A stretch of 64,000 bases of DNA from Promethearchaeota archaeon (GTDB lineage Archaea; Asgardarchaeota; Lokiarchaeia; Sigyniarchaeales; SOKP01), in NCBI GenBank assembly GCA_030599585.1, contig JAUVNS010000014.1:1-64000 (forward strand). The letters are read 5' to 3'. This document shows, piece after piece, positions 9,046 to 60,171 of this stretch. How positions within the stretch are numbered: position 1 is the first letter of the stretch; every line of letters begins with the position of its first letter. The notes beneath the pieces were generated by a model that ran no database searches, was not told where the DNA came from, and was given only the letters and a program-made list of their open reading frames with translations. A program made the position numbers and the translations under genes.

Positions 9046-9252
9046 TTATCGCTCGATCTGAAAGTTAACTTGTACCCGAACTCGATAAATTAATTTATCT
9101 TGATCCTCTTTAACCTTTACATCGGATTCGATGATTTGAATATTTCTGATACCACGAAGCGATTTTTTAGCCTCGTCATAAGCTATTTTCACTGCATCAG
9201 CCCAATTTTTATCGCTTGTAGCTACTAACTGAATGCTTTTATATACTGTAAT
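9046..9252 (-). CDS. Dodecin (flavin-binding), 68 aa, ATT start (not in ORF track)
   Basis: (M)TVYKSIQLVATSDKNWADAVKIAYDEAKKSLRGIRNIQIIESDVKVKEDQDKLIYRVRVQVNFQIER; AGGTGA upstream; in-frame TGA three codons before ATT. Confidence 0.9.
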   Translation of the reverse strand: MTVYKSIQLVATSDKNWADAVKIAYDEAKKSLRGIRNIQIIESDVKVKEDQDKLIYRVRVQVNFQIER

Positions 9253-9413
9253 TTTATTTCACCTTTTTAGTTATTATTGTATTAATTTTATTGTAGAAAT
9301 TATAGTTATAGTAAGTCTAATTGTTTTTTTTTATTATTTAAATATTTCTAGAATAAATCTAAAAAAAAGAAATGAAGAGAAAAAAAAAAGAAAATTAAAT
9401 TACAAATGTTCGA

Positions 9414-10697
9414 TTAGGCATCAATATTTTCGATAATCGTAGCGACTCCTTGTCCGCCACCAACACAGGCATTAGCAACCCCATATTTCGCTTTTTTATC
9501 TTTTAATATCCGAGCTAATGTCCCAGGTAATCTTATCATGGTAGAACCTAACGGATGTCCAATTGCAGTTGATCCTCCCATGACATTGACTTTTTCCTCA
9601 GGGATATTAAAATGTTTCATACAATTTAAAGCGACTATGCAGAACGCTTCATTAATTTCCCAATAATCTATGTCATCAGCGGTTAATCCGGCGCGTTTTA
9701 GAGCCATTTCAGTTGCTGGCACTGGCCCACGACCCATAACACTAGGTTCAACGCCAGCCCAACCAATTGAAACAATTTTTGCCATAGGTTCTAATCCTCG
9801 CTTTTTTGCTTCCTCAGCTTCCACCATAATGCAAGCAGTAGCACCTGCGTTCAATGGAGACGAATTTCCAGCAGTAATCACGCCTTCTTTAGTACCCTCT
9901 CTCTTTATATACCCTTCTTTGCCTCCATTTTTTTCCAAGTAAAATGGTTTTGATAATCTTCGTAATCCAGCAACCCTTTCCAGGGTTGATTTTCTTGCAG
10001 CCATATCCTTTTCAACCATCATTTTTTCTTCGATATTACCGTCTACATGACCCTCAATGCCTATAATTTCGCCTTTAAACCAACCGGCTTCTTGATTCCC
10101 AACCGTTAAGTTATGGGCTCTTACACCAAATTTGTCCATATCTTCTTTCGTGAATGCTGGGATTTCTTCTTCGTACAATTTCTGAGCTGTCTGTAACATA
10201 TTAATAGTTGTTAGGATATCATATTGGGGTCGATACCATTCGCTCTTCTTGTTAATCATTTTTAAATTCGGATTAACATGTTTGTTTTGCATATCAACGC
10301 GCGTCATGTGTTCAACTCCTCCTGCTAAACAGATTTTACTATACCCTGTCATGATTTCCATAATCCCAACATGCATTCCGCTCCCAGCGGAGCCACATTG
10401 TCGGTCGACAAACATAGCAGGTACTGTGACAGGAAATTCTGCTAAAAATAGCGGAAGTCTACCACCATAAGTCCAATTTTCATAAACACCCATAGCAGTT
10501 CCTACGGTAAACTCATCAATATCCTTTTTCTCGATGCCTTTATCTGCTAATTTTTGATCAAAAAACTTCATCAATAATGTAGCTAATAGTTCATCACTTC
10601 TAATCTCGCCAAAAACATCTCTCTCGGGCTGTTTTGGTCTAGACCGAGAAAAAGCTGTTCGTGCGTAATCTATTAACCATACTTCTTTTAAATCCAT
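9414..10697 (-). CDS. Thiolase (acetyl-CoA C-acyltransferase)
   Basis: RQCGS, EINEAF, GHPLG, CVGGGQG catalytic motifs. Confidence 0.95.
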   Translation of the reverse strand: MDLKEVWLIDYARTAFSRSRPKQPERDVFGEIRSDELLATLLMKFFDQKLADKGIEKKDIDEFTVGTAMGVYENWTYGGRLPLFLAEFPVTVPAMFVDRQCGSAGSGMHVGIMEIMTGYSKICLAGGVEHMTRVDMQNKHVNPNLKMINKKSEWYRPQYDILTTINMLQTAQKLYEEEIPAFTKEDMDKFGVRAHNLTVGNQEAGWFKGEIIGIEGHVDGNIEEKMMVEKDMAARKSTLERVAGLRRLSKPFYLEKNGGKEGYIKREGTKEGVITAGNSSPLNAGATACIMVEAEEAKKRGLEPMAKIVSIGWAGVEPSVMGRGPVPATEMALKRAGLTADDIDYWEINEAFCIVALNCMKHFNIPEEKVNVMGGSTAIGHPLGSTMIRLPGTLARILKDKKAKYGVANACVGGGQGVATIIENIDA

Positions 10698-10907
10698 ACT
10701 TTTGTATCCCTCTTATTTTATAATATTTTAAAACGAAGTTTTATCTAAAATTTTAATATTATGTTATGAATGTTCAAAAATGTATTAAAGTTTTTGATAA
10801 GAAGTCTATGCGACTTTAAACATTCAATTACTCATTTCGATAATCTAATAAAAAATTATTAAGATTTTATTAGTATCATTTTTATTTTTGGAACATTTAG
10901 TTAAAAT

Positions 10908-11306
10908 ATGGCAGATACGATAGTAAGTATAATTGCGGGATCCGAATCAGATAAAGAAGTATTTGAAAAAGCCGAAAAGGTATTAAAAGCAAATAATATA
11001 CCTTATGAACTTCAAATTATCTCAGCTCACCGTGATCCAGAAAAACTAGACGAATATTTAAACTCCTGCCAAAGTCTTATATATATCGCTGTTGCAGGGT
11101 TATCTGCTGCCTTACCAGGCGTTATTGCGTCTAAAACAGAAAAACCTGTTATTGGGGTGCCTGTTAGTGCTAAATTGGGGGGTTTAGATGCACTATTATC
11201 TATTGTTCAAATGCCACCTCGAGTCCCTGTTGCGTGCGTAGGAATTGATCGTGGAGAAAATGCCGCGTATCTAGCAATAAGAATACTTAATTTGTTAAAG
11301 AAATAA
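10908..11306 (+). CDS. purE: AIR carboxylase / N5-CAIR mutase
   Basis: [29 protein letters not shown]. Confidence 0.93.
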
Positions 11307-11309
11307 GTA

Positions 11310-12023
11310 ATGGTGTCATTAATGAGCAAGGAACTTATAGAACTAGGTAAAAAAAACGCTGCAAATAAAGCAGTCGAGGAAAATGTAGAAGCAGGTATGA
11401 TTTTAGGTATAGGTAGTGGTTCTACCGTTGTGTACGCTGTCAAGAAGATAGCTGAGATTAACAAAGCTAAGAACATGGATTTAAAATGCATTCCCACCTC
11501 TTTTCAATCTCGCCAATTAATAGTTGAAAACGGTCTCACTCTTGTTTCCTTAGATCAGTATCCTGTGATTGATCTGGATATTGACGGAGCAGATGAAATT
11601 GACAAATCTTTAAATTTGATTAAGGGTGGTGGAGGATGTTTAGTTCAAGAAAAAATCATAGCGTCAGCTTCGAAGAAGTTAGTTATTATAGCAGATTATA
11701 CTAAAAAATCGGAATTCCTGGGAGAAAATTGGAAGAGTGGAGTACCAATTGAGATAATTCCTTTAGCACATGTTCCTATTATGAAGAAATTGGAAAAATT
11801 TGGAGGTACCCCCGTTTTAAGGATGGCTCAAGCAAAAGCAGGACCAGTGGTCAGTGATAATGGTAATTTCATTATCGATGCTGATTTTGGTATAATTAAA
11901 AATCCTTTAGATTTAAATTTAAAACTTTTGCAAATACCTGGTGTTGTAGATTCTGGCTTATTTTTAGGGATGGCTCATACGGCTTATATTGGTCAAAAAG
12001 ATGGCACAGTTAAGAAGTTCTAA
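11310..12023 (+). CDS. rpiA: Ribose-5-phosphate isomerase A
   Basis: GIGSGST, DGADE, IKGGGG, QEK, SDNGN. Confidence 0.96.
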   Translation: MVSLMSKELIELGKKNAANKAVEENVEAGMILGIGSGSTVVYAVKKIAEINKAKNMDLKCIPTSFQSRQLIVENGLTLVSLDQYPVIDLDIDGADEIDKSLNLIKGGGGCLVQEKIIASASKKLVIIADYTKKSEFLGENWKSGVPIEIIPLAHVPIMKKLEKFGGTPVLRMAQAKAGPVVSDNGNFIIDADFGIIKNPLDLNLKLLQIPGVVDSGLFLGMAHTAYIGQKDGTVKKF

Positions 12024-12085
12024 ATTTAATTTTAATAGACAATTTACTAAGTAGAGTCTTATCTATTTAGAGATTACCAACTAAA

Positions 12086-15000
12086 TTAGTTGTGAAATGT
12101 TAAAGATTTACCACAACTAGGACAAAATTTTTGTTGAGTAGTTAAACGATAACCGCAATAAGGACAATAGGAAACTAATTCTTGAGAATAATCTTTAGAT
12201 TCTGGTGATGAACCATCATCATAATCATACTGGTAATAACTCTCAGAAGGTGTTGATTGATAAGATTTTCTTTTCTTTCTAAGATACATTGAAACACCGA
12301 GTATTAATGCAATCACGATGACCACACCGATAATAATTAGAATGAACAATAAGTCTATTGGGAGCGCTGGTTGTATTAACACAACTATTAAGAAATCTTC
12401 AGATTCCCCTTCACCATCGAAAGCTGTTATTAATAAGTAAGCTAAATATCCGTCTTGAGAGGTACTATCATATTGTGATGCAGTAGAGAATTGTTTAGGT
12501 CCAGTTATAGTGGAAAATTCCATTGTGTAAGGAATTACAAAGTTTCCAGAGTGGGTATTAGAACCGGAGTCGTAAGTCATCTCAGAAAAGATGTTGATTC
12601 GGGGTCTAATAAGAACGATGTTATTATCTTCTGAGATAGATGCGAGAAATAAGTTTACGGAAACCTTCATCTCAGAACTATCTTGGTCTTCGTATGAAAC
12701 CGAATCCGTTAAATTAATTCGAAAGTCAAGACGAGATCCTTGTGATATTGAATACACATTTAAACTATCCTCGGTGTGAGTTTCGTCAAAAGTAACTGTT
12801 TGCGAATTATCTATTAGGATTGTGGAACTTTCTTCTACGAATTCAGGTGGGTTATTGTTGATTAAGGATACAAGTCTTGGAGAATACGGATTGTGATAAC
12901 CAGAACTCGGGTTGAACGGTACAATATAAAAAATCGCAAAACCAGGCACATCCGTAGAGGTAGGGGTATAGGCATAAGAATATTTAGAAGGATTAGGCAT
13001 AGGGTTTGATAAGAGGAAAGTTTTATTAATTGTTCCTTTTTCAGTGTAGTAAGTTAAAGGATAGAACGATAAATAAGCAGTTGCATCGTAAGTAGTATCA
13101 TCGAGAGTAGCATCGATATTTAGCGAATCTATACCATTTCTTTCAAGATCAGTAGTTGTTATTATGCTTGATATTTGGGGTATTAAACTATTATTATAAT
13201 ATAAGATTTTAGATGATTTTTTGTAAGTTTGTGAGCCAATTGTTATATTTACATCAATAATATAAGGTTTTGTACTTGGTCCCGGGAGAATAGTTGAGTG
13301 ATTGATCGAAAGCCCATCTGAACTTGAAATCATATTAATCGATTTAAAATAGCTGTCGTTTTGTATTGAAACATTGAGATAAGAATTCAATACCGTGGAA
13401 CTAACAAGAGCGTCTAAGTCTTGATTTTTTATGTAGAGCGAGAGGTTTATTTGAGAGGATGGTGTACTTTCAGAATCTATAATAATTTCTATAGAGACAT
13501 TTTCGTTCTCGAAGAAATAATCCATTAAGTTTCGTGTTAAGATTGAATGATCTTGTTTATACGAGGGTGATTCGTAAAGATCTGTAGTCCAATGAAGATC
13601 TCCAAATGCTACAAAGCGCCCTCCTCCAAACGGATTATGATCGTATGCGGCAGCGATGGTTTTATCCTCTGTTGAAGCGATTGCTTCAGCATTCCCCATA
13701 ACGCTTAAAGTACTTCCATATTCCCACGAAAATTTACTTACACCCTGGAAAATCAAAGAATTATTAAAATTTGTTATAGATTGAGTAGAAACCGTAGCTC
13801 CAACCCCTATCCATTCTTCGTTGGCTACATTTTCCTCATTAATAGTGATATTTAGATCGATATATGAAAACAATTCGTTAATATTCTCAATACATAAGTC
13901 TTGATATCGCGTTCCTAAAAATAGCAAATTTCCTCCATTTTCGAAATAATTTTTCAAATTATAAAATTCTAATGGGTTATAGGGTAAGATAGGATTTTGT
14001 AATACCACCAAATCATACTGAGCCAATCGTTCTTCAGTCAAAATAGAGTTATCTAAATTGCTTTCGTAATTAGGAGTCCAAAATTCTGCTAAATAATCTG
14101 TATCAATGTTCAACTGTGAGAGATCTTTCATCCACGCATACGAATCCATCTGGTAAAACGAAAGTTCAGGAAACCAATCATTCAATCCATGGTAAGAATC
14201 CATTAAAATTTTATGCTCAGGAAAACGTACGTCTATTGATATGATAATTGTGTCATACACCCTCATACCAGATGTAATGTTTAAATCGAAAGTTTGCAAG
14301 CCAGGTGTAGCATTTATGTTTATTTCTACTCTGAGCGCAACGAATTGAACCCCAGCGTTGTTAAAAATTATCTGGGATTTATCTAAAGATAAAGAAATCC
14401 CATCGACATAGGAAGTGTAGTTAACATTTAAAGTATTATTAGTGCCAGAGATAACCGTTAAATTAAACTCTTGAATATCTCCTGGAAAATTAATTAAATC
14501 GAAAGGTTTTATTGGTAACTCGTCTGGCGAAAGTTTGGCAACATCATTAATATTAGAATAAGTTGTATTTAAATAATTCAAATACTCAAGAGACGCAGAA
14601 ATATTAATTAGCCCGAATCCAGATTTCATGAATTCAGAATCATCAGGATTAGACAAATCCTGAGCCCCCTCTAATAGCGCTATCCTTGCAGTTTCAGGAG
14701 ACAACGACGGATACGCTTGTTTCATAATAGCTAAAGCACCAGCGACAATGGGGCATGACATACTCGTTCCACTAAGAGGAATATAATCCGCATCACCTGA
14801 GAAATCGAAAAATCCTCCAAGAAATCGATTCCTATCAGATATGGTAGATTTTGGAGCCTCAGCCGCGATAATATTCACTCCCGGGGCAACAACATCAAGA
14901 TATCCTAGATAAGACAAAGATGGCCCCCAACTACTAAAAAAGGCTAAATTATTATTGCTATCTGTAGCTCCTACAGAGATAACATCAATACCTGATGCTG

Positions 15001-16048
15001 GAGAGCCTCCCGAAAAGTATTCCGGTCCGGAATTACCTGCTGAAGACACAGTGATTATTCCATTTTCGGTAACTGACGCAAGCGCAAGTATCATTAGATC
15101 ACTTGCAATAGGATTGCGATCTCCAAAACTCATAGAGATTATATCTGCGTTAGCAGTGTTAACGCTCCATTCAATAGCACTAATAACGTCTCCTTCTTCT
15201 AATCCCGAAGCATCTCCTGCTTTAGCATTTATTATCGAGATTCCTGGAGCAACTCCTTTATACAATCCTCCTGAACCGCTACCGTTTCCTCCAATAATTC
15301 CAGCGACATGAGTTCCATGACCAACTAAATCGTTGTAATCTAAAACACTCTCGCCTGAAACGAAATTTCTATTTGCAGTTAAATTTAAGTCAGGATGTTC
15401 ATAAACCCCCGTATCGATAACAGCAACTCTCACACCAGTGCCGTCAAAAGCTAAGTTTTCAGCACCTATAGCAGGTATCCACCAATTGGGATATAAGTTT
15501 GAGTTCAATGCACTTGAACTAGGAAATTCATCTTGAAAATAAGGAAGAAGATAGTTCCGAGATTTATAAACCTTTTTTAAAGTGCTAAAAGATTCCAGTG
15601 TGTCTATTTTGGAAGCTAATTCACTTACTTGACATTTAAGGTAAACAGCCGGAATGATATCATAATTATCTAAAATTGTATAATCTTCAAGCGTATTATC
15701 AATGAATTCGATTCTTTCCGATTTTGAAGTTGTTTCCTCAAAAAGCATTATAGTTTTTATTTCGGAAACCCCATTCTGCCCATGCGTTGCTAATTCTTTA
15801 ATTAATAAATCACCAAAGATAACATCTTGTTTATTACTAGGAGGATTTATATCACCTATGTAAGGAATCGCGCGGTTGGAATTGAATATAGAAAATTCAG
15901 TTGTGTTCGATTCTAACTGATAAAGATAAGAAGGATTTTCATTACTTAATATACCAGTTCCAAATACGGGGCTAACTACTGAACTGATTAACAAGATACT
16001 AATCAATATAAAATTAGTTTTGGTCCAAATGTTTTTCATAGTCTTCAA
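12086..16048 (-). CDS. Membrane-anchored S8 subtilase (signal peptide, prodomain, catalytic domain, Ig-like, GldG/IFT52-like domain, TM, cytoplasmic zinc ribbon)
   Basis: VIDTG, HGTHVAG, SAGN, GTSMS; C-terminal TM followed by RKKRK and CPYCG...CPSCG. Confidence 0.92.
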   Translation of the reverse strand: MKTMKNIWTKTNFILISILLISSVVSPVFGTGILSNENPSYLYQLESNTTEFSIFNSNRAIPYIGDINPPSNKQDVIFGDLLIKELATHGQNGVSEIKTIMLFEETTSKSERIEFIDNTLEDYTILDNYDIIPAVYLKCQVSELASKIDTLESFSTLKKVYKSRNYLLPYFQDEFPSSSALNSNLYPNWWIPAIGAENLAFDGTGVRVAVIDTGVYEHPDLNLTANRNFVSGESVLDYNDLVGHGTHVAGIIGGNGSGSGGLYKGVAPGISIINAKAGDASGLEEGDVISAIEWSVNTANADIISMSFGDRNPIASDLMILALASVTENGIITVSSAGNSGPEYFSGGSPASGIDVISVGATDSNNNLAFFSSWGPSLSYLGYLDVVAPGVNIIAAEAPKSTISDRNRFLGGFFDFSGDADYIPLSGTSMSCPIVAGALAIMKQAYPSLSPETARIALLEGAQDLSNPDDSEFMKSGFGLINISASLEYLNYLNTTYSNINDVAKLSPDELPIKPFDLINFPGDIQEFNLTVISGTNNTLNVNYTSYVDGISLSLDKSQIIFNNAGVQFVALRVEININATPGLQTFDLNITSGMRVYDTIIISIDVRFPEHKILMDSYHGLNDWFPELSFYQMDSYAWMKDLSQLNIDTDYLAEFWTPNYESNLDNSILTEERLAQYDLVVLQNPILPYNPLEFYNLKNYFENGGNLLFLGTRYQDLCIENINELFSYIDLNITINEENVANEEWIGVGATVSTQSITNFNNSLIFQGVSKFSWEYGSTLSVMGNAEAIASTEDKTIAAAYDHNPFGGGRFVAFGDLHWTTDLYESPSYKQDHSILTRNLMDYFFENENVSIEIIIDSESTPSSQINLSLYIKNQDLDALVSSTVLNSYLNVSIQNDSYFKSINMISSSDGLSINHSTILPGPSTKPYIIDVNITIGSQTYKKSSKILYYNNSLIPQISSIITTTDLERNGIDSLNIDATLDDTTYDATAYLSFYPLTYYTEKGTINKTFLLSNPMPNPSKYSYAYTPTSTDVPGFAIFYIVPFNPSSGYHNPYSPRLVSLINNNPPEFVEESSTILIDNSQTVTFDETHTEDSLNVYSISQGSRLDFRINLTDSVSYEDQDSSEMKVSVNLFLASISEDNNIVLIRPRINIFSEMTYDSGSNTHSGNFVIPYTMEFSTITGPKQFSTASQYDSTSQDGYLAYLLITAFDGEGESEDFLIVVLIQPALPIDLLFILIIIGVVIVIALILGVSMYLRKKRKSYQSTPSESYYQYDYDDGSSPESKDYSQELVSYCPYCGYRLTTQQKFCPSCGKSLTFHN

Positions 16049-16186
16049 ATATTAGATTAGTTATTTATTTCTAACTTTAATAGTTAAAAAACCATAATTT
16101 TTTTTAGAAATACATTATTTTTAAATCTACAGCTAACGATCATTTACGTTTGATAAAAGAATACACTGATAAAAAATAAAACCCAA

Positions 16187-16288
16187 GGGGCTGTGGATTA
16201 GTGGATCATTCAAATCATAAGATTTGGTGCACTAAAGATCGTTCGCTTGGCATGCGAAAGGCCGGGGGTTCAATTCCCCCCAGCTCCA
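16187..16288 (+). tRNA. tRNA-Ala(GGC) with D-loop intron; CCA not encoded
   Basis: Acceptor GGGGCTG/CAGCTCC-A with G3:U70; anticodon arm TTCGC-TTGGCAT-GCGAA (GGC at 16249-16251); T-arm GGGGG-TTCAATT-CCCCC. Confidence 0.95.
16206..16235 (+). other. 30-nt tRNA intron at position 20/21 with bulge-helix-bulge junction
   Basis: GATT-AGTG-GA^T...CACT-AA^A-GATC; internal hairpin CAAATC-ATAA-GATTTG; removal gives GATTAGTGGAAGATCG. Confidence 0.88.
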
Positions 16289-16326
16289 CTTTTTTTATGT
16301 TTTAAAAGTTTTAAAGAAGAATGTTC

Positions 16327-16350
16327 ATCGTGAAATCGGGATTTCACGAT
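16327..16350. repeat. Perfect 11-bp inverted repeat, candidate operator
   Basis: ATCGTGAAATC-GG-GATTTCACGAT between the tRNA and the racemase gene. Confidence 0.6.
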
Positions 16351-16407
16351 CTATCTATTGTAAATACGATCTGAAAATTATTAATAATTATTGTATTTGG
16401 AATAAAT

Positions 16408-17103: not shown

Positions 17104-17228
17104 AAAATTTGTTTTCTACTTGGTTTTTTAAGATATTTTTTGCGTTATTTATGACCTCTGGAAGTTTTTTTAAATCCCTAATGCTATTTTATAATTATTA
17201 CAATAATGTTTAATGGGTAATTTCTATA

Positions 17229-29067: not shown

Positions 29068-29874
29068 TTACCTAATATGATCCCATTCTTTTTCTTTAGT
29101 AAACATCCTAGAAAACATTATATAACAAATATCAGGCAATTCCTTGTCAATGTTTTGTAAGGTGATATATCGTAGAATATGATTAATTAGGAAAATTCCC
29201 AGAAATTCCATGTGATAACTACCTACTTTTTTAGAGAGTGATTCACCTGTATAAGAGATATTTAGTTTCTCTTGAGTATCGTACGTTAATTCAATAGAAA
29301 TTCCTGGAAATACTTCCTTTGTAATTTGCCATTTATCAGCTGTTTTCCACACTGTAGCACCTAGAAAAACTGCTAAGTCATTTACATCACTATCTTTCAA
29401 TAATCTAAATGGCTCAGTTCTTTGAATTAAAACCTTTTGCATTAATTCGGATTTTTTATCATAAGAATGTTCAAAGGGTTCTCTATTTTGAATCATTCTC
29501 TCCATAAAATTAAAAATTATATCAACGTAAGTAATGCTATCTTCACCAGGGATTAAATGTACTCTTTCACCTGAAAAAAAGCATTTAAATTCTGCGGTAA
29601 CCCCATCTCCAAATTCATCTCCGAAATATGTAAAAACTAGATGTATGTTAACCTCTGGAAACATTTCTAACGTAATCGTCCAATCTTCGTTAAAACCTAT
29701 ATTTTCGATTTTACCCCCAATATCCTCGAAAATTATCTTCTTAAGCATATTCATGTTAATATCAACGAAAAGTTTATGCTTTGCTTTGCTAACATCTTCT
29801 AATTCCTTAACATGGGGGCCTGTTACACCAGTTGCATCGATTTGACCGACAGTCCAATATTTAGTTCCAGTTAT
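29068..29874 (-). CDS. DUF3786-like duplicated-domain protein; probable ATA start
   Basis: Two similar halves (LEMFPEVNIHL / KEVFPGISIEL), DEF...PGED; frame open 40 codons above ATG 29754 to ATA behind AGGTGG. Confidence 0.65.
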   Translation of the reverse strand: MTGTKYWTVGQIDATGVTGPHVKELEDVSKAKHKLFVDINMNMLKKIIFEDIGGKIENIGFNEDWTITLEMFPEVNIHLVFTYFGDEFGDGVTAEFKCFFSGERVHLIPGEDSITYVDIIFNFMERMIQNREPFEHSYDKKSELMQKVLIQRTEPFRLLKDSDVNDLAVFLGATVWKTADKWQITKEVFPGISIELTYDTQEKLNISYTGESLSKKVGSYHMEFLGIFLINHILRYITLQNIDKELPDICYIMFSRMFTKEKEWDHIR

Positions 29875-29916
29875 TTTAACTCCACCTTAGAAAAAGTTGT
29901 TCTAGTATTATAGAAG

Positions 29917-49110: not shown

Positions 49111-50046
49111 GTGAAAGCAATGGTATATACAAAATACGGGGGTCCGGAGGTTTTTCATCTCAAGGAGGTAGAAAAACCTACTCCCAAGGAAAATGAAATA
49201 CTGGTAAAAGTATATGCGACAACAGTAAATGCAGCGGTGAAGAATAGTCGAAGAGGTATACACCCAGATTCCAAATTTTTTACTCTCGCGTTGCGATTAA
49301 TGATGGGTCTCAGAAAGCCAAGAAAACCTATACTAGGGTATGAGCTAGCCGGGGAAATTGAAGCAGTAGGCAAAGATGTAAAACTATTTAAGAAAGGGGA
49401 CCAAGTTTTTGGTAGTACCACCGGGTTGAAGAATGGTGCTTATGCTGAGTACGTATGTCTGCCAGAAGAATGGAAGCAAGGGATGGTGGCAATAAAACCG
49501 GTCAATATGACCTTTGAGGAGGCCGCTGCTGTTAGTACTGGAGCAACTACAGCGTTGTGCTTTCTTAGAAAAGGAAATATCCAGAGCGGACAAAAAGTTC
49601 TTATCTATGGAGCTTCTGGAAGTAATGGTACTTTTGCGGTACAGCTTGCCAAGTACTTTGGGGCAGAAGTTACCGGAGTATGCAGTACCACAAATTTAGA
49701 ATTAGTTAAATCTTTGGGAGCCGATAATGTAATTGACTACACCAAAGAGGATTTTGCAGAAAGAGGAGAGCTTTATGATCTCATTTTTGATGCCGTTGGA
49801 AAAAGCTCAGCTTCACATTGTAAGAAGGCATTAGCTCCGAACGGGAAATTCGTAACAGTTAAAAAAGGATACTTTAAGGAAACGAATGAGCTTTTAATTT
49901 TTCTAAGAGAGCTTATTGAGGAGGGAAAGCTAAAATCGGCCATAGATAGGAGCTATCCCTTGGAACAAATGGTCGAAGCTCATACCTACGTTGATAAAGG
50001 GCACAAAAAGGGAAATGTAGTAATTACAATAGAGGGCGTGGTATAA
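49111..50046 (+). CDS. Zinc-free MDR-family oxidoreductase, copy 3
   Basis: GTG start behind AGGTGA; YGASGSNG; [10 protein letters not shown]. Confidence 0.93.
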
Positions 50047-50048
50047 GT

Positions 50049-50408: not shown

Positions 50409-50527
50409 AAAAAATGGAAAAAAAAAGGTTATGATATCAACGACATCGCTCGAGTGCTAATGGTGCTCTGAAATTGTATGATAGGTAAATTCTATCATTT
50501 TTTTTACTATGAAAAAGGTGAATAAAA

Positions 50528-51028
50528 ATAAAACTATGGATAATATATAAGAACGGAATAGGATTCTCGAAGATTATTGCTGAAATGCTCCAGGATCTCT
50601 TGGAAGATTACCTTGATGTAGATGTAGGAAGGGTAAAAAAGATTGATCCTGCTTATTTGGTTGAAGAAAGGGTAGATTTTTTGATAATTGGAGATATTAT
50701 CAGTAAAGAAATCTCGAACTTGGAAATTCAAAATTGGTTGCTTAAATATGGGGAAATTACAAATATCAATAATTTCATTGTTAAAGCTATGTCAGGTTTT
50801 TATATTGCTCCTTCCGATATTAAAATCGAACCCCTCTGGGTTGAATCTCTTCAAGAGAATATAAACGCTGAAACGATTTATCCACCAATACTTCGTTTAA
50901 AGCTAAATAAAGCAGGTTTAGCATTAGAAAATAGAGCTCTTGATATAGTTAAAGAATATTCAAACGATTTTCTTGAATTTCTTATTAATAACAAAAAAAG
51001 AATAATAAAGAAGTTTATTGATGTATGA
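50528..51028 (+). CDS. Degenerate flavodoxin-fold protein; probable ATA start
   Basis: Frame extends 19 codons above ATG 50585 as IKLWIIYKNGIGFSKIIAE (beta1, loop, alpha1); AGGTGA with in-frame TGA upstream. Confidence 0.65.
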   Translation: MKLWIIYKNGIGFSKIIAEMLQDLLEDYLDVDVGRVKKIDPAYLVEERVDFLIIGDIISKEISNLEIQNWLLKYGEITNINNFIVKAMSGFYIAPSDIKIEPLWVESLQENINAETIYPPILRLKLNKAGLALENRALDIVKEYSNDFLEFLINNKKRIIKKFIDV

Positions 51029-51100
51029 TGGGCATAACCAAGAAATTTTTAATATTTTATATTAAATAAGCACCATTCTATGAAAAGGCGATGATTAATA

Positions 51101-52054: not shown

Positions 52055-52104
52055 TTTTTTTTTTTATTTTTTTAAAGTTTAACTCAATTGAGAAGGTGAT
52101 ACCT

Positions 52105-52269: not shown

Positions 52270-52312
52270 CATCATTGTATCATTTCTAATCAAAATTATT
52301 TTTAATTTTTTT

Positions 52313-52900
52313 TTAGGTTAAAATTTTAAGTTTCTCAAGACGGATAGAATCCGGTAATGGATTGCCAGTAAGTTTTAATGTCTCTAAGTTTTTAAAGTTA
52401 GCTAAGTTATCTATTTTTCGGATTTGATTATTTGATAAATTTAAGTGCTTGAGGTTAGGTAATCTCTCTAACCCTTCAATATTTGTAATCTGATTATTGC
52501 TCAAATCTAAACGTTGCAGGTTTTCTAAATGTTCCAGATTTTCAACTTTTCGAATTTTGTTATTATTTAGTAATAGCTCCTTCAAATTTTTTTGATGATC
52601 TAAGTGTTCAATTCTAGAAATTTGATTACCACCTAAGTCCAATTCTTCTAACTTATTAAGGGCATCTAATCCATTAATTTCTTGTAGCAAATTAGATTCT
52701 AAATGGAGTTTTCTTAAATTCACAAGAGAGTTCAATCTTTCCATCACAGCAATATTGTTCCCCTCTAAAAAAAGGCCCTTCAGATTGGAGTATTTACGTA
52801 ATTTTTTTATTTCGCTAAAGGTATTAATATCCATGTTATTTAAATAGAGATTATTGTTATTAACAAAAACTTTTTTCTTTTTTATCGTGATATATTCCAT
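52313..52900 (-). CDS. Leucine-rich repeat protein (SDS22-like 22-aa repeats)
   Basis: LxxLxLxxNxIxxIxxL repeated about 7 times. Confidence 0.92.
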   Translation of the reverse strand: MEYITIKKKKVFVNNNNLYLNNMDINTFSEIKKLRKYSNLKGLFLEGNNIAVMERLNSLVNLRKLHLESNLLQEINGLDALNKLEELDLGGNQISRIEHLDHQKNLKELLLNNNKIRKVENLEHLENLQRLDLSNNQITNIEGLERLPNLKHLNLSNNQIRKIDNLANFKNLETLKLTGNPLPDSIRLEKLKILT

Positions 52901-53027
52901 GGAATGTAGCTAGAAACACCTACTTATTAGTAAATCGAATAAAAATTATAACTAAAACGAATTATCAGTTTATAATTGAAAAGTGACATATAAAAAGTTA
53001 GATGACTCCTTCTCTAAAATGGAGTAA

Positions 53028-53618
53028 TCAAATTTTTCTGCATAATAATTCGCCTTTTCCAATAGGAACTATTAAAGCATCGACGCGTTTATCTGATAGG
53101 GCTTTGTCAATCATGGGTTTTAAGACATCATAATGATTAATTGCATTATCAGCTACTAATATGCCTCCTTTTACCATATTTGGAATAATTAAATCGTAAC
53201 ACTCATCATAAACTTCTTTTTCAGCGTCTAAAAAGCAAAAAGATATGTTTTTTTCTTCTTTTAAAAAATCCCGAGCATCCCCTTCTACTAGTTCAACAAA
53301 ATTTGCCATTTTACTCTCTCGAAATGTCTCTTTTGCAAGTTTTATCTTTTCTTCTAAAATTTCAAAAGTTTTTATTTTGATACCTCTCTCTATACATGCG
53401 AGCGCTATCCACATAGTAGAATAGCCTCCACTAGTACCAATTTCTAAAAATTCTCCATTAGGAGCACCAGCAGCTAAGATTGATAGGAATTTACCCGTTT
53501 CCGGAGGAATTTGACGAAGTCTTTTCATTCGAGGTGTTCTATCTACCCTATCTTTCGCGTCGATATTTTCTAAATATTTCATTCGATTTTTTACTGGTTC
53601 TGGGATGTTATGTAGCAT
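53028..53618 (-). CDS. Class I SAM-dependent O-methyltransferase
   Basis: [27 protein letters not shown]. Confidence 0.92.
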
Positions 53619-53800
53619 TTGATTTCAACTTCCTATTGTATTAACAATAGTATATTTAAGAAAAAATATAATGATTATCAATGCATCATAAGTTACTTCA
53701 AATGGGTTAATATTAGACAGAGCAGACCATTTTTTTCATTGAAAAATTCTTTTTAAACGAAGAAACTTATTCTAGCTTATATAAAAACAAAATTTTCAAG

Positions 53801-54997
53801 TTGAGTAAATTGAGCTTTAAAATAAAAAACAATGTATATTGGGTAGGGAAAATAGATTGGGAACTCAGAAAATTCCATGGAGATGAATATTCTACTCATC
53901 GTGGTTCCACCTACAATTCTTACCTAATTAGAGAAGAGAAAAATGTCCTGATTGACACGGTATGGATGCCTTTTTCAAAAGAATTTGTTAAAAATCTCTC
54001 AAAAGAAATTGACTTAGAAAAAATTGACTATATTATAGCTAATCATGCAGAAATAGATCATAGCGGTTCACTTCCTGAGCTTATGGAGCGCATACCAAAC
54101 ACTCCAATTTACTGTACAGCAAATGGTGTTAAGTCGTTAAAAGGCCACTATCATAAAGATTGGAATTTTAAAGTAGTAAAAACGGGGGATACATTAGATT
54201 TAGGAAACGGTAAGCAGTTGATCTTTGTAGAAATGAGAATGCTTCATTGGCCTGATAGTATGGCGTGTTATCTAACTGGAGACAATATCTTGTTTAGTAA
54301 CGATGCGTTTGGCCAACACTACGCCTCGGAATATATGTATAACGATCTCGTTGATCAAGATGAGCTATTTATGGAATGTATCAAATACTACGCTAACATT
54401 TTAACGCCTTTTAGTGCTCTCGTGGATAAAAAAATCAAAGAAGTTTTAGCTCTAAACATTCCAATAGATATTATTGCAACAAGTCATGGAGTTATCTGGA
54501 GAGACAATCCAACTCAAATTGTAGAAAAATATTTATCTTGGGCTAACGATTACCAAGAAAACCAAATTACAATATTGTACGATACAATGTGGGATGGAAC
54601 AAAAAGAATGGCGGAAGCAATTACAAAAGGAATTCGTGAAATTGATACGAATGTTAATGTTAAATTGTATCATATCGCAAAAACCGATAAAAACGATTTA
54701 ATTACAGAAATCTTTAAATCTAGGATTATTCTTGTAGGATCACCTACTATTGGTGGAGGAATTCTATCTGGTGTTGCCGAAATTTTGGAGATGATTAAAG
54801 GAATGCGGTTTAAAAACAAAAAAGCGGCGTCATTCGGTTGCTATGGATGGAGTGGAGAATCAATAAAGGTTATAAAGGAACATTTAGAAAAGAGCGGTTT
54901 TTCTGTAATTAATGACGGTGTTCGCGCTTTGTGGAACCCTGACGATGAAAGTTTGGAAAAATGCGTAGCATTCGGCAGAGAAATAGCCAATAGTTAA
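53801..54997 (+). CDS. fprA: Flavodiiron protein (FprA / A-type flavoprotein, O2/NO reductase)
   Basis: [21 protein letters not shown]; flavodoxin [16 protein letters not shown]. Confidence 0.93.
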
Positions 54998-55143
54998 AAA
55001 ATTTTTTTTAAATTCATTTCTACTTTTTTAATTGGATTAAGCTTTTAATATCCTTTGATCGTTCAATAGACCCGTACATGCTATATTTGTGATATACATA
55101 AATACAAATTCTAATATTATATCTTTACTTAAGGTGATCGATT

Positions 55144-55506
55144 ATCTCTAAAATTCTGGTTGTTGACGACGACCGTACTATGCTAAAGCTCTATAAGTTA
55201 TTATTAGCAGGAATGGGGGATTATTCAGTTGAATTCTTTATCAATGGCAAAGATGTCGTTGAAAATTATAGAAAGCATTCAGAAAAACCTAAAGTAATTA
55301 TTATGGACTATCGAATGCCTGTTATGAATGGACTTGATGCAATGAACGAGATATTGGAGATTGACAGAAACACTAAAATAATTTTTGCAAGTGCTGATAC
55401 TTCCATGAAAGAGCTTTCTATTTCAAAGGGGGCTACAGCTTTTCTTAGTAAGCCTTTTAAAATTGAAGAACTAATAGATTTAATCAATAAAACAATAAAA
55501 GAGTAA
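55144..55506 (+). CDS. Stand-alone receiver; true start ATC 55144 or ATT 55141
   Basis: The essential KILVVDDD lies upstream of ATG 55180; MDYRMP, FASA, KPF. Confidence 0.9.
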   Translation: MSKILVVDDDRTMLKLYKLLLAGMGDYSVEFFINGKDVVENYRKHSEKPKVIIMDYRMPVMNGLDAMNEILEIDRNTKIIFASADTSMKELSISKGATAFLSKPFKIEELIDLINKTIKE

Positions 55507-55515
55507 TTAACAAAG

Positions 55516-57426
55516 GTGTATGAAATATTGGAAAACACTCGTGATAATATTCTAAAGTTAAGAGAGTTAAAAAAAAGATACAAGTTATTTTATGAATATG
55601 CCCCACTCCCTTATCAATCTTTGGATGAAAATGCTAACATTATAGATATTAATCAAGCGTGGCTTGATTTTTTTGGATATGATAAAGAAGAAGTGATCGG
55701 GAAGTGTTTTGGCGAATTTTTAGTTCTTAAAAGTAGAGAGATGCTAAATTCAAGATTTTCGCATTTTAAAGAAGTAGGAGTAATTCAGGATGTAGAATAC
55801 GAAATTGTAAAAAAGGATGGCATTCATAGAAATATTTGGTTAGATGGAAGAATAGAATATGATAAAAACGGGAATTTTACACAAGCACATTGTTTTTTCA
55901 AGGATATTACCGATCGTAAGCGCATTGAAAATCAGCTTAGGAGTAGTAAAACTTTTCTTTCTAATGTATTTACAAGTATTCAAGACGGGATTAGCATTCT
56001 TGACAAAGACTTGAACATCATCCAAGTCAATCCAATAATGGAGCTTTGGTATTCGCATTCGATGCCAATGCTTGGTAAAAAATGTTACGAAGTATATCAC
56101 GAGAGAAATAAACCTTGTGAAATTTGCCCTTCCCTTCAAGCTCTTAGATCAGGTCAACCAGCTTACGAAATTGTTCCTAAAACAGGACCTAAGCAAAAAA
56201 TTACTGGCTGGTTGGATCTCTATTCATTCCCTCTACTTGACGAAGAAGGAGGGCAGATTATTGGAGTAATTGAATACGTGAGAGATATATCTGAACGTAT
56301 GAAGGCAGAACAAAGATTAAGAGATTCTGAGGTAAAATATAAATATCTCTTTGAAAACGCTCAAGTAGGATTATATTGGTCCAGAATTAGCGATGGAAAA
56401 TTTATAGAATGTAATGAGATTTTTGCTAAATTGCTTGGATATGGAACACGAGAAGAATTATTAGAAGATTATATTGCTACTGAACATTACGTTTATCCAA
56501 CCAAGCGCAACGAGATGCTAGATGCGATCCGGAAAAACAAAGAAATTAGAGATAGTGAAATTCTAGTCACTAAAAGAGACGGTACTCCTATTTGGTTAAG
56601 TATTTCTGCTCGAATGTTTGAAAAAGAAAATAGAATTGAAGGTGCTGTCATTGATATCACCAGACGAAAGAAGACTGAACAAGAATTAAAAGAATCTGAA
56701 CTACTGTATAAAAAAGCATATGACAAAGCAGACTTCTATAAAGATTTATTAGCACATGATGTGAGCAACATTTTTAATAACATAAATGCCTCGATTCAAC
56801 TAATAGAATTATGGAAAGAAGATTCTGAAGTATTAAACAATGATGGAGATATGATTGATATCATTAAACAACAATTAGAAAAAGGTGCTTCTTTAGTTTC
56901 AAATGTGCGTAAGCACTCAGAAATAGAGGAAGGAGAGAATCTAGTAAAATCGGTTGATGTGATAGATGTAATCAATGAATCAATTAAAGATGTTCTTTCT
57001 CGATTTCATTATAGAGAAATAGAGATAAATGTTAAAAAGACTAATGAAATTCCTAATGTTAAGGGAGGGGATTTACTGATTGACGCCATTGAAAATATAT
57101 TAATAAACGGTGCTCTCCATAACGAAAGCGATACGATAAGAATGTGGGTTAATGTGTCCGAAGTTTATAAAGACGCCGAAAAATTCGTAAAGCTCGAATT
57201 TAAAGATAACGGCATTGGGATTATTGATGAGAGAAAAAAAGCAATCTTTGAAAGAAATTATAATAAAGATAAGAGTACGGGTGGAATGGGTATAGGGTTA
57301 TCGCTCGTTAAGACAATAATTAATAGTTATGATGGTCAAGTTAAGGTCGATAATAGAGTATTGGGAGATCACACAAAAGGGAGCATTTTTGTTGTCTTGT
57401 TAAAGCAATGGCAACTAATGGATTAA
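55516..57426 (+). CDS. Cytoplasmic 3xPAS histidine kinase
   Basis: LAHDVSN, NGALH, DNGIG, GMGIGL. Confidence 0.93.
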   Translation: MYEILENTRDNILKLRELKKRYKLFYEYAPLPYQSLDENANIIDINQAWLDFFGYDKEEVIGKCFGEFLVLKSREMLNSRFSHFKEVGVIQDVEYEIVKKDGIHRNIWLDGRIEYDKNGNFTQAHCFFKDITDRKRIENQLRSSKTFLSNVFTSIQDGISILDKDLNIIQVNPIMELWYSHSMPMLGKKCYEVYHERNKPCEICPSLQALRSGQPAYEIVPKTGPKQKITGWLDLYSFPLLDEEGGQIIGVIEYVRDISERMKAEQRLRDSEVKYKYLFENAQVGLYWSRISDGKFIECNEIFAKLLGYGTREELLEDYIATEHYVYPTKRNEMLDAIRKNKEIRDSEILVTKRDGTPIWLSISARMFEKENRIEGAVIDITRRKKTEQELKESELLYKKAYDKADFYKDLLAHDVSNIFNNINASIQLIELWKEDSEVLNNDGDMIDIIKQQLEKGASLVSNVRKHSEIEEGENLVKSVDVIDVINESIKDVLSRFHYREIEINVKKTNEIPNVKGGDLLIDAIENILINGALHNESDTIRMWVNVSEVYKDAEKFVKLEFKDNGIGIIDERKKAIFERNYNKDKSTGGMGIGLSLVKTIINSYDGQVKVDNRVLGDHTKGSIFVVLLKQWQLMD

Positions 57427-57533
57427 ACCTTATTGGTTTCAAATAGCTTTTTTAATTACATTTAAGCCAAAATAGAAAGAAGCAAAATTCCTTTACTGGT
57501 AAAGTTTTATTGAATAGAATATTTTCTTTATGT

Positions 57534-58175
57534 ATGTCTCAAGATATCGTACAAATTAAGCTTAGCATAGAAATACCTGAAGATAAATGGCTAGCAACTT
57601 TCAACAAAAAATATCCAGAATTGAATTTTCATATTCTATCAAACTTTCCAATCGGAGAAAACTCAGGGATCACTTCGTTCCAAATAAGGGGTTCCTCCAT
57701 AAAGCGTTTTATTTCCGATTTTAAAGAAAAATCAGCTGAACAAACTGCTCAAATTTTGTACGAAGATGAAGATCTTGTAATATTGAACGTAAAGGAAGGC
57801 GACCCATGGATATTAAATACTTTAGTGAAAACTGAGCTATTGATATCTTATCCTGTGCTAGTAAAAGGTGGTAAAATTAGAATAGAAGCTATCACAGACC
57901 GTTCAAAAGTAGATAGATTTTTAACACAGCTAAAAAAGAAAGACATAAAAGCGAAAATCGAGCGCATAGGGTATTATTATAAATCGACTCTCCTCACTCA
58001 AAGACAAAATGAAATATTAAATTTTGCATATCAAAAAGGATATTTTAACATTCCAAGAAGTGTTTCATTAAGCGAATTCGCTAAAGATTTAAGCATTTCA
58101 AAATCGGCTCTTTCTGAAACATTGAGGAGGATTTTTAAGAAATTAGCTAATAATCACATTAATTCTAGCAATTAA
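57534..58175 (+). CDS. Bacterio-opsin-activator-type HTH (HTH_10) regulator
   Basis: LTQRQNEIL..AY.KGYF..PR..SLSE.A..L.ISKS..SE.LRR; ATG 57534 preferred. Confidence 0.9.
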   Translation: MSQDIVQIKLSIEIPEDKWLATFNKKYPELNFHILSNFPIGENSGITSFQIRGSSIKRFISDFKEKSAEQTAQILYEDEDLVILNVKEGDPWILNTLVKTELLISYPVLVKGGKIRIEAITDRSKVDRFLTQLKKKDIKAKIERIGYYYKSTLLTQRQNEILNFAYQKGYFNIPRSVSLSEFAKDLSISKSALSETLRRIFKKLANNHINSSN

Positions 58176-59278
58176 ATCTGCGATAAGAGTTCTATTAAAG
58201 CCCGAGGAATCTCTTTATAGTTGTTTACAGCAAAAAATTTACCTTGTCCAACTCGAGCTATTTCTCGACAGGTATCGATCCCTCTTTCAGCATCGTTCTC
58301 AGCGGGTATTCCGATGACGTGCAGCTTAGGGTATTTCTTAGCTAAATCAAAAGGGTTTTTCCCTCTATTATAGTTTCCATCGGTGATTAAAATCCCCGAT
58401 TTATGTCTTGTTTTTTCCTTAATCTTATTTAATTCTTTTAATCCTTTTTCTAAACCAATATGAATATTAGTAAAGCCAACTGCCTCCGAATCAAGAATTT
58501 CATCTATGATTTTTATAACCGGCTTCTTCTTATCTATTTTTTTAAGAACCATAGCTGTGGAATTGAAAAGAACTATTCCATAACTTTCTTTTTCCATATT
58601 ATAAGCCAAAACGGATGTAGTTAGAGCTGCGTTAAGTAGAAGCTTCCCATACATACTCCCACTAGTGTCTAAAATCATTACAATTTTTCTCTTTTGCTTT
58701 TTTCTTTGTATTCCAAAGATATCTTTGTAAGTTAGGCTATTTTTATATATATTTAATGGGTTATGTTGAATTGTTTCATCTAAGTCAAACTCTGGAGTCC
58801 CTATCTGATAAGAAGGAGTTATTTTTTTAAAATTTCCTCTAATTCCTTTACTAGTTATTTTTAACGAGGTTTTTACTATACTTTGTCTTGCTAGTCGTCT
58901 AAAAACATGCTTGTATTTTTCTGAAATCGGTCGTCTAATAAAAAAGTAAACTTCCGCCATTGAAATTTCAGAATTTTTTGCTTTTTCTGAAAAGAATTGT
59001 ACACCTTCATCACAATCTAAAGCGTCAGTTGCGGCGTATACATTAGATTTAAGTAAACCTAGGATGGCTTCAAGATTTTTATGGGTTATTGATAAGTAAG
59101 TTAATTCCTTAATTTGTTTATAATCTAATGTATTTGCTAAATGATGATAATAATCTGGTTTTTTCTTTTGTTTTCTGATTATTTCATACCTAAGAATTTT
59201 TTCATCTGGGATTCTTTCTGTATGTCTTATGTGGAGCCTCTTATTCTCAATCTTCTCAATCTCTTCGAAATCATCGAT
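58172..59278 (-). CDS. VWA (CoxE-like) partner of MoxR ATPase; about 368 aa with probable ATC/ATA start
   Basis: MIDAS DTSGS, T, TDG; frame open 106 codons above ATG 58960 up to a TAATC overlap with the MoxR stop. Confidence 0.85.
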   Translation of the reverse strand: MDDFEEIEKIENKRLHIRHTERIPDEKILRYEIIRKQKKKPDYYHHLANTLDYKQIKELTYLSITHKNLEAILGLLKSNVYAATDALDCDEGVQFFSEKAKNSEISMAEVYFFIRRPISEKYKHVFRRLARQSIVKTSLKITSKGIRGNFKKITPSYQIGTPEFDLDETIQHNPLNIYKNSLTYKDIFGIQRKKQKRKIVMILDTSGSMYGKLLLNAALTTSVLAYNMEKESYGIVLFNSTAMVLKKIDKKKPVIKIIDEILDSEAVGFTNIHIGLEKGLKELNKIKEKTRHKSGILITDGNYNRGKNPFDLAKKYPKLHVIGIPAENDAERGIDTCREIARVGQGKFFAVNNYKEIPRALIELLSQI

Positions 59279-60171
59279 TATTGAAAATCTGATTTATTTA
59301 GAGCCGATAATACGATGTCAGCTATTATCTCTTCTTTTGAGCTAGTAACGCCATCTTCGAGTTCGACCTTATTATATAAAGCCATTATTGCAGTATTAAC
59401 CCAATTCTTTGAACTATTTATTTCTTCAGTTTTAGAAATTAGTTGTGCTAGATCAATTGCTCCTCTTATTGAACTTCCTCTCTGTATTGATCGGTTATTT
59501 CTTGAATGATGTATTATTTGTTGAGAGAGTTGTGCAATTTTTTCTCCATCTAGATTATCTAGATTAGCCTCTTGTTTAATGATAAGAACTTCTTCTTCAG
59601 AGGGTTGAAAATCCAACTTTATCCAGATAAATCTATCTTTTAAAGCTTCTCCAATGACAGTTACACCCACATGGGCGGCTGGGTTTTGAGTAGCGATCGT
59701 AAAGAATTTGCTATGAGCCTTAATTGTTTTCAATTTAGGAATTTCTAAAATACCCTCATCTAGTGCCGTTAAAAGTGAATTTTGCGTGCTTTCAGGCATC
59801 CTATTGATTTCATTTATAAAAAGACAGCCTCCTTTTAGCATAGATGAGGCCAGCGGACCGTAGATATATGAATCTTCTTGATAACCTTTTGATATCACTA
59901 AGGGGGGATCAAAATAACCGACTAAATTATGAGGTAGAGTCTCTTCAGAACAGTCTATTCGAGCAAAATCAGTATCGTAAAATGAAGAAATTGCTTTTGC
60001 TATCCTCGTTTTACCTGTTCCTACTTGGCCCTCAATGATTAAATTTTTATCTACTGACCTTGCTAGAATAATTTTTTTTAATTCCTCAGTTCTCCCAATG
60101 ATTTTATATTTACTTTGTATCTCTTTCACAATCTGAGATGCATTTAACATGTTTTTAATAATATTAAGCAA
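59278..60171 (-). CDS. MoxR-family AAA+ ATPase
   Basis: GQVGTGKT, INEINR, ATQNP, ALKDRF, SIRGA. Confidence 0.92.
   Translation of the reverse strand: MLNIIKNMLNASQIVKEIQSKYKIIGRTEELKKIILARSVDKNLIIEGQVGTGKTRIAKAISSFYDTDFARIDCSEETLPHNLVGYFDPPLVISKGYQEDSYIYGPLASSMLKGGCLFINEINRMPESTQNSLLTALDEGILEIPKLKTIKAHSKFFTIATQNPAAHVGVTVIGEALKDRFIWIKLDFQPSEEEVLIIKQEANLDNLDGEKIAQLSQQIIHHSRNNRSIQRGSSIRGAIDLAQLISKTEEINSSKNWVNTAIMALYNKVELEDGVTSSKEEIIADIVLSALNKSDFQ

Follow-up and report, generated by a model that had tools for sequence, protein, structure and literature searches.

Probable near-cognate start codons behind strong Shine–Dalgarno sequences in a Promethearchaeota genome, and a likely −1 frameshift at an ATPase–VWA junction

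The first 64 kb of contig C1 (JAUVNS010000014.1) from a Promethearchaeota archaeon, a stretch referred to here as the window, raise the question of where five of their genes begin. The genes encode a dodecin, a conserved 268-amino-acid (268-aa) protein, an alpha/beta protein, a response-regulator receiver and a protein with a VWA domain, and a previous reading made without database searches (the sequence-only reading) assigned all five to start codons of the form ATT, ATA or ATC (ATH, or AUH in the mRNA). The codons and coordinates it gave agree with a direct reading of the coding strands at all five sites. Within the whole genome (4.85 Mb in 52 contigs, 32% G+C), four of the five genes very probably follow a general habit of AUH initiation behind a strong Shine–Dalgarno (SD) sequence, and the VWA gene is a separate case that is better explained by a −1 frameshift. 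The proposal of ATH starts is therefore retained for the dodecin, the 268-aa protein, the alpha/beta protein and the receiver, and is judged the less likely reading for the VWA gene.

Four window genes with probable ATH start codons

The four genes and their SD sequences are arranged as follows.

9046–9252, minus strand: dodecin gene, start ATT 9252–9250, 68 codons plus TAA
9259–9264, minus strand: SD AGGTGA of the dodecin gene, 6 nt upstream of ATT 9252, at an aligned gap of 4 (genome optimum)
29068–29874, minus strand: conserved 268-aa protein with no confirmed family, start ATA 29874–29872
29882–29887, minus strand: SD AGGTGG of the 268-aa protein, 7 nt upstream of ATA 29874, overlapping the in-frame TAA at 29887–29889
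50516–50521, plus strand: SD AGGTGA of the alpha/beta protein, 6 nt upstream of ATA 50528
50528–51028, plus strand: alpha/beta protein, 166 aa, start ATA 50528
55132–55139, plus strand: SD AGGTGATC (8 nt) of the receiver; ATC 55144 begins 6 nt after GGTGA
55144–55506, plus strand: single-domain response-regulator receiver, start ATC 55144

In all four genes an in-frame stop codon lies 2–4 codons upstream of the ATH codon, and the first ATG, GTG or TTG (the canonical start codons) lies 12–40 codons downstream of it, which agrees with the earlier statement that no canonical start is usable. The spacing previously noted behind AGGTG(A/G) is likewise confirmed, with 6–7 nt between SD and ATH. Each SD is complementary to the 16S rRNA 3' end; the aligned gap of 4–5 at all four sites equals the genome optimum of 4–5. 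To place each start in its family, orthologues were collected from up to 30 relatives and their DNA was compared at the aligned start, giving a start column for each gene.

The dodecin (PF07311) is matched over its full length, with Pfam profile positions 1–64 of 64 aligned over residues 3–67 at 58.9 bits (gathering score 22.5). Its minus-strand context is TGA AAT AAA ATT(9252) ACA GTA TAT. Among 14 orthologues from the genus the start column holds ATT in seven, ATA in two and ATG in five, all behind an AAGGTGA-like SD. The first canonical codon is GTG 9192, and a start there would cost 20 residues.

The 268-aa protein begins in the minus-strand context TAA GGT GGA GTT AAA ATA(29874). Its column within the genus comprises ATA in five members (its own included), ATT and ACG in one each and ATG in two, while the five orthologues from more distant relatives begin with ATG or TTG; an N-terminal KYWTVGQI motif is conserved among the orthologues. 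In a collection of 5.8 billion proteins, the closest homologues (74–91% identity) are called at 228–231 aa and cover 84–85% of the query, and more distant ones (61–72% identity) are called at 268–272 aa, a length that fits the aligned start column. As judged from these lengths, the public calls for the close relatives of the ATA type are short by about 40 residues, in line with the truncated annotations that had been predicted. The name ‘DUF3786-like’ is not supported for this protein, as DUF3786 (PF12654) matches at 13.2 bits, below the gathering score of 27 (E = 0.066).

For the alpha/beta protein the plus-strand context TGA ATA AAA ATA(50528) AAA CTA TGG offers two ATA codons. The start is placed at 50528 because the start column of the orthologues falls there, and ATA 50522 is rejected by SD spacing as well as by the orthologue columns. 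Across 13 homologues this column contains ATG (six times), GTG, TTG, ATT, ATA (twice) and, in a paralogue from the same genome, CTG, and the N-terminal (M)KLWIIYK is conserved. The paralogue, 65% identical and located at C45:22137–22604 on the minus strand, has an in-frame TAA immediately before its CTG and a GGTGA upstream. The earlier label ‘flavodoxin-like’ is left unconfirmed, as no Pfam, NCBIfam or PDB sequence match was found, and the AlphaFold model, of low confidence with a predicted local distance difference test (pLDDT) score of 45, gives only an alternating beta-alpha pattern in which residues 2–7 form strand beta-1.

The receiver is read from the plus-strand context TGA TCG ATT(55141) ATC(55144) TCT AAA ATT CTG GTT GTT GAC GAC GAC, and Response_reg profile positions 1–110 match its residues 5–115, from KILVVDDD onward. 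Two adjacent codons had been offered as its start. ATC 55144 is kept in five of five orthologues, is the only codon found in that column and has optimal SD spacing; ATT 55141 is replaced by ACT in two of the five and is rejected.

These columns also bear on another explanation, namely that the downstream ATG, GTG or TTG codons are the true starts, or that the frames are pseudogenes or sequencing errors, with untranslated extensions. Standard gene callers do yield such models. Alignment of orthologue N-termini, the check proposed at the outset, finds the protein sequence of the extensions conserved in independent assemblies and lined up with orthologues that start with ATG. Sequencing errors and pseudogenes are excluded because the assemblies carrying the orthologues are independent, and downstream starts would remove strand beta-1 of the dodecin and the acidic pocket of the receiver. 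On these comparative data all three versions are rejected, and the explanation as a whole is hardly credible.

Genome-wide association of near-cognate codons with SD sequences

The genome-wide test uses 3,913 non-overlapping stop-to-stop open reading frames (ORFs) of at least 100 codons. In-frame codons that precede the first canonical start by 4 codons or more are each scored for a 5-mer of AGGAGGTGATC at an aligned gap of 3–6, a spacing taken from confident ATG starts. Such a 5-mer SD precedes 2.3–3.0% of in-frame ATH codons versus 0.9% of other codons (Fisher p = 1.5e-13). Relative to the background of 0.93%, the enrichment is 3.2-fold for ATT (45 of 1493), 2.5-fold for ATA (28 of 1204) and 3.1-fold for ATC (12 of 417), and it extends to ACG (8 of 132, 6.5-fold) and CTG (4 of 98, 4.4-fold). 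No enrichment is present for AAG (0.8-fold) or AGG (none) in the leaders of the same ORFs. The signal is also specific to the reading frame, at 2.6–3.3-fold for ATH in frame and 0.3–1.0-fold when the triplet is shifted by one or two bases.

The excess over background corresponds to about 56 ATH genes and about 10 ACG or CTG genes. It follows that at least about 65 genes in this genome most likely start at ATT, ATA, ATC, ACG or CTG (the near-cognate codons) behind a strong SD; the figure is a lower bound, because the count passes over weak-SD genes, short genes like the dodecin and any start no more than three codons from a canonical one. With a 4-mer SD the excess is 59, essentially the same as the 56 obtained with a 5-mer, and therefore near-cognate starts nearly always carry an SD of at least 5 nt. 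The codon-usage coding potential of the leaders (0.23 ± 0.13 versus 0.08 ± 0.11 per codon over 20 codons) separates them too weakly for SD-independent cases to be counted and is not used for these estimates.

Canonical starts with short leaders provide the reference, with a 4-mer SD in 27% and a 5-mer SD in 11%. These shares differ from the account in one review, by which Lokiarchaea seldom have SD sequences (PMC12993045). The canonical starts that have both a short leader and a 5-mer SD number 263, and on that scale near-cognate starts would account for roughly one in every five to six genes led by a strong SD. The SD reaches 6 nt or more in 57% of near-cognate starts that have an SD of at least 5 nt, versus 32% of canonical starts with a 5-mer SD. 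SD-backed canonical starts divide into 337 ATG, 91 TTG and 38 GTG, so that TTG, earlier described as frequent, makes up about 20%. Two other Asgard genomes, sampled over 800 kb each, have a TTG share of roughly 10–13%.

Protein families give a further test. When 20 candidates from the genome are searched against Pfam, at least 13 have profile positions 1–3 ahead of the first canonical codon. Those with a Pfam N-terminus upstream of that codon include the following.

Ras-family GTPase: first canonical codon 80 codons in
uS4 and uS8: starts ATC and ATA, respectively
three Gtr1/RagA-like GTPases: starts ATT, ATA and CTG
PIN nuclease: start ACG
Rpp14/Pop5, PheRS-beta and 3-hydroxyacyl-CoA dehydrogenase (3HCDH)
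pyridine-nucleotide oxidoreductase (Pyr_redox) and GFO/IDH/MocA oxidoreductase

With downstream starts, several of these GTPases would be left without a P-loop, and uS4 and uS8 without their N-terminal domains. The recurrence of ATH initiation, which had been proposed from the window, is thus supported by the four window genes, the orthologue columns, the frame-specific SD association and the Pfam coverage of N-termini.

The four small GTPases, one of the Ras family and three Gtr1/RagA-like, are located at C4:12115, C24:282243, C40:299597 and C50:74450, with ATA, ATT, ATA and CTG, respectively. Small GTPases are counted among the ‘eukaryotic signature proteins’ of Asgard archaea. In public models of these four, strand beta-1 or a portion of the P-loop is probably missing.

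Three other plus-strand ORFs of the window, at 53717–54997, 57456–58175 and 62261–62785, begin with leaders of 28, 18 and 23 codons ahead of any canonical start, and none of these leaders contains an SD-backed near-cognate codon.

The initiation machinery and competing explanations

The sequence-only reading attributed the ATH codons to relaxed start selection by the initiation factors aIF1 and aIF2 and suggested inspection of the aIF1 sequence. The gene for this factor is itself among the candidates.

C3:26012–26362, plus strand: aIF1 gene, start most likely ATT 26021

Its frame runs TGA AAA AAG AGT ATT AAA GAC and continues into a Cys-x2-Cys zinc knuckle, ahead of which there is no ATG, GTG or TTG, a further point against downstream canonical starts. 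The ATT is invariant in 17 of 17 genomes of the genus, and in other genera the column holds ATA (two genera), TTG, GTG or ATG. Inspection of the protein finds the basic and aromatic loop 1 conserved, with RRKWGK compared with KRRFGK in M. jannaschii and RARYGK in Pyrococcus.

The initiator tRNA gene, on the minus strand of C3 around position 50032, has A1, GGG/CCC in the anticodon stem, the anticodon CAT and an encoded CCA, and it is interrupted after position 37 by an intron of about 48 nt. It is the only initiator-type gene located by pattern search in a genome for which tRNA detection is incomplete: ARAGORN and the Rfam tRNA model, applied to the whole genome, return 21–27 tRNAs and no tRNA-Met, and many tRNA genes of this genome are probably interrupted. 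The ARAGORN calls also include one tRNA-Pyl (cta) and one tRNA-SeC (tca), which may be false.

The tRNA bears on an explanation by a special decoding agent, either a modified C34 on the initiator tRNA or initiation with Ile-tRNA, through which AUH would be read as a cognate codon. The modification f5C34 lets mitochondrial tRNA-Met read AUA and AUU. Direct support from this genome is absent, although ATH codons account for 85 of the 97 SD-backed near-cognate matches, as an expansion of third-position wobble would explain. The enrichment per codon is higher for ACG and CTG, which a C34 modification would not explain, and the initiator gene that was located is canonical, with the incompleteness of tRNA detection noted above. 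Such an agent is accordingly considered improbable.

The mechanism proposed here relies instead on the ordinary components. An SD duplex of 5–8 nt would set the AUH codon, 6–7 nt downstream, into the P site, where the ordinary initiator Met-tRNA (anticodon CAU) would most likely pair with a single mismatch, which falls on position 3 in AUH, on position 1 in CUG and on position 2 in ACG. Weak starts of this type may throttle expression and make it sensitive to the activity of aIF1, and the ATT start of aIF1 itself could then close a feedback loop analogous to that of bacterial infC. The start codon of aIF1 invites this analogy without proving it.

Several known systems share parts of this arrangement. 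AUH starts are described in bacteria for infC and pcnB of E. coli and for infC, cvfC1, ccpN and citZ of S. aureus (PMC4705826, PMC13009471). As in the present genes, a strong or extended SD precedes them at a suitable distance, they are conserved among relatives, and in infC the gene of a fidelity factor starts at AUU or AUA (PMC4705826, PMC13009471). The bacterial examples differ in number, with two to four genes per genome compared with at least about 65 here, and in their proofreader, which is IF3. In this genome ACG and CUG are probably included and the factor is aIF1, a homologue of eIF1. Reviews of archaea list only AUG, GUG and UUG as starts, and aIF1 of Saccharolobus solfataricus rejects AUU in vitro (PMC4705826, PMC6237735). 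Other elements of described archaeal initiation agree with the proposal, including aIF1, aIF1A, aIF2, Met-tRNAi and local positioning assisted by the SD (PMC6237735, PMC4705826). Literature searches on non-canonical starts in Asgard or other archaea found no description of this start-codon usage, and the nearest cases on record are bacterial (PMC13009471).

The codon spectrum also appears to match that of eukaryotic near-cognate initiation, in which CUG, ACG and AUU/AUA/AUC are usable and AAG and AGG are not, and a weak initiation signal on the fidelity factor’s own gene would parallel the autoregulation of eIF1 through a poor start context. Unlike in eukaryotes, positioning depends on the SD and not on scanning or a Kozak context, and GUG and UUG are normal starts.

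Two interpretations of why these codons are used remain to be compared. Relaxed aIF1/aIF2 machinery is a plausible cause; the almost constant presence of a strong SD at near-cognate starts fits gene-specific weak starts rescued by the SD equally well. In the gene-specific version, fidelity is ordinary, aIF1 and aIF2 are no more permissive than in other archaea, and each ATH, ACG or CTG start is a selected throttle that is usable only with an unusually strong SD, on the pattern of bacterial infC and pcnB and of cvfC1 and ccpN in S. aureus. The length distribution of the SD sequences given above agrees with this version, as do the conserved loop 1 of aIF1, the long conservation of ATH in some genes such as aIF1 itself, and the finding that AUU and AUA starts of S. 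aureus need an extended SD and yield about 10% of AUG output (PMC13009471). Other observations are harder to accommodate: the genes involved number at least 65, or 12–20% of strongly SD-led genes, far above the handful known in any bacterium, ACG and CTG are also used, and in the dodecin ATG, ATT and ATA swap freely between close species, which resembles tolerance more than tight selection. Selected throttles of this kind are a substantial possibility that nevertheless falls short of being the expected explanation. The broader alternative is that Loki-type Asgard archaea work at deliberately lowered stringency and use eukaryote-like near-cognates (AUU/AUA/AUC, ACG and CUG, not AAG or AGG) for a few percent of their genes, ribosomal proteins and small GTPases among them, with aIF1 acting as a homeostat because its own AUU would raise its synthesis as fidelity drops; the autoregulation of eIF1 and the regulated non-AUG initiation of eukaryotes could have an archaeal forerunner in such an arrangement. 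This scenario is offered tentatively and is somewhat unlikely in its full form.

AUH initiation behind strong SD sequences as a genome-wide habit, the reading preferred here, has to be weighed against four considerations that count against it or limit it. Both the use of the near-cognate codons in translation and the nature of the first residue are inferred. Loop 1 of aIF1 has no obvious lesion, so that a ‘relaxed machinery’ lacks a molecular correlate. In the same SD test, 800-kb samples of a genome from the same order and of one from another Asgard family give only 1.9-fold and 2.1-fold enrichment (p = 0.13 and 0.09), and these samples are underpowered; subsamples of 750–820 kb from the present genome give 3.4-fold and 1.9-fold, the 820-kb one being as low as the other Asgard genomes. 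Finally, three receiver orthologues have an ATG four codons downstream, where this genome has CTG 55156. The alignment indicates that the receiver could start at this CTG; with either codon its start would be non-canonical.

If the habit is real, a few percent of the genes in public proteomes of Loki-type Asgard archaea, among them those for ribosomal proteins, aIF1 and small GTPases, would systematically be given incorrect N-termini, and the start-codon sets of gene callers would need widening for these organisms. Start selection in the archaea closest to eukaryotes would then depart in stringency from the AUG/GUG/UUG scheme based on Pyrococcus, Saccharolobus and Haloferax, with a bearing on the evolution of eukaryotic stringency and of eIF1 autoregulation, and the ATT start of aIF1 would provide a concrete and testable feedback hypothesis.

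The VWA frame and its junction with the ATPase gene

The fifth gene lies directly behind a gene for an AAA+ ATPase, with which its frame overlaps.

59278–60171, minus strand: MoxR/CbbQ/GvpN-type AAA+ ATPase, 297 aa, the zero frame of the proposed frameshift
58172–59293, minus strand: VWA frame, open for 373 codons and in −1 relative to the ATPase, beginning with 111 codons without ATG, GTG or TTG
59281–59289, minus strand: proposed −1 slip site GA T_TTT_C, with the T-run at 59284–59287, one codon before the ATPase stop TAA at 59278–59280

The ATPase is recognized by Pfam as AAA_5 (2e-19) and AAA_3 (3e-19) and has PDB sequence matches to midasin, CbbQ and NorQ, and the VWA domain occupies residues 200–359 of the VWA frame. 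In the minus-strand context TAA ATC AGA TTT TCA ATA(59281) ATC(59278) GAT, the ATA and the ATC had been proposed as alternative VWA starts. The first in-frame canonical codon is at 58960, 106 codons past these junction codons.

Ribosomes most likely slip by −1 at the end of the ATPase gene, on GA_U_UUU_C, and so enter the VWA frame, an event that would give both a short ATPase and an ATPase–VWA fusion. Of 201 sampled Asgard genomes, 121 have the pair of genes, and their VWA frames are open for about 360–390 codons. The VWA frame is in −1 in 18 of 20 sampled Asgard families, with the first canonical codon 11–65 codons later or none in most, and in orthologues across the phylum its open stretch begins a little upstream of the slip site. 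In 18 of the 20 families, three or more Ts (at least four in most) form a T-rich run 0–2 codons before the stop. Its form is T_TTT_N; some families have the canonical heptamers T_TTT_TTC or T_TTT_TTA, and two of the 18 families in −1 have only TTT. Within this genome’s own family, the GATTTT run is kept in all of the roughly 74 junctions recovered, and the surrounding block of roughly 25 nt, with GATTTT(C/T)A(A/G)TA(A/G)TCGATGA, is near-invariant even at synonymous sites. Hairpins follow the slip site in many families and are clear in several (z from −2 to −3.6).

Fusion of the two products has a natural counterpart in one Asgard genus, where in-frame ATPase–VWA ORFs of 717–732 aa are 46–48% identical to the window proteins in the ATPase part and 33–35% in the VWA part. 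No longer, fused VWA homologue was found in the 5.8-billion-protein search, which is weak evidence. VWA paralogues of about 840 aa in this genome were considered and are not ATPase fusions.

An explanation without frameshifting, which applies to the VWA gene only, is re-initiation coupled to termination of the ATPase, either at ATA 59281 (an ATAA overlap) or at ATC 59278 (a TAATC overlap). The geometry mimics the ATGA and TAATG overlaps of coupled genes. Across the order and the phylum, however, the codon overlapping the stop is ATA, TTA, CTA or GTA, because it is dictated by the TAA or TAG stop, and the next codon is not near-cognate in most families and genera. An SD at the proper spacing is also missing, and what is conserved instead is the T-rich run, the −1 relation of the frames and the 25-nt block, to which the in-frame fusions may be added. 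Re-initiation at either codon is thus rated unlikely.

Two facts detract from the frameshift: all of the roughly 74 family relatives keep at least one of ATA and ATC at the junction, which also speaks for re-initiation, and the RNAalifold consensus in this genome’s family reaches only −4.8 kcal/mol with little covariation.

The closest described system for −1 slippage at such a junction is fs-chlD, in which programmed −1 ribosomal frameshifting joins a ChlI-like AAA+ part to the VWA-containing part of ChlD (PMC3711429, PMC9227772). Both have an AAA+ ORF ahead of a VWA ORF that lies in the −1 frame and has no start of its own, a slip site rich in A and T close to the stop and, in some lineages, fusions within a single ORF. 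The present pair differs in that its ATPase is MoxR/CbbQ/GvpN-like (AAA_5/AAA_3) and not ChlI/ChlD, in that the slip site is usually a T_TTT tetramer, and in the weak support for a stimulatory structure in this family. A search with TIGR02031, the model for the ChlI/ChlD family of Mg/Co-chelatases, gives 24.5 bits, compared with a cut-off of 499.55. By analogy, it fits these data that the VWA junction may work like fs-chlD without being a member of that family. If so, it would be a further recoded AAA+/VWA gene outside the chelatases.

A further caveat for the frameshift is a small difference from the relatives at the junction itself. In the window interval 59195–59300 (minus strand), this genome is without 6 nt, for which the consensus in 51 family relatives is TCTGAG/TCTGCG, just after the invariant TCGATGATTTC block.

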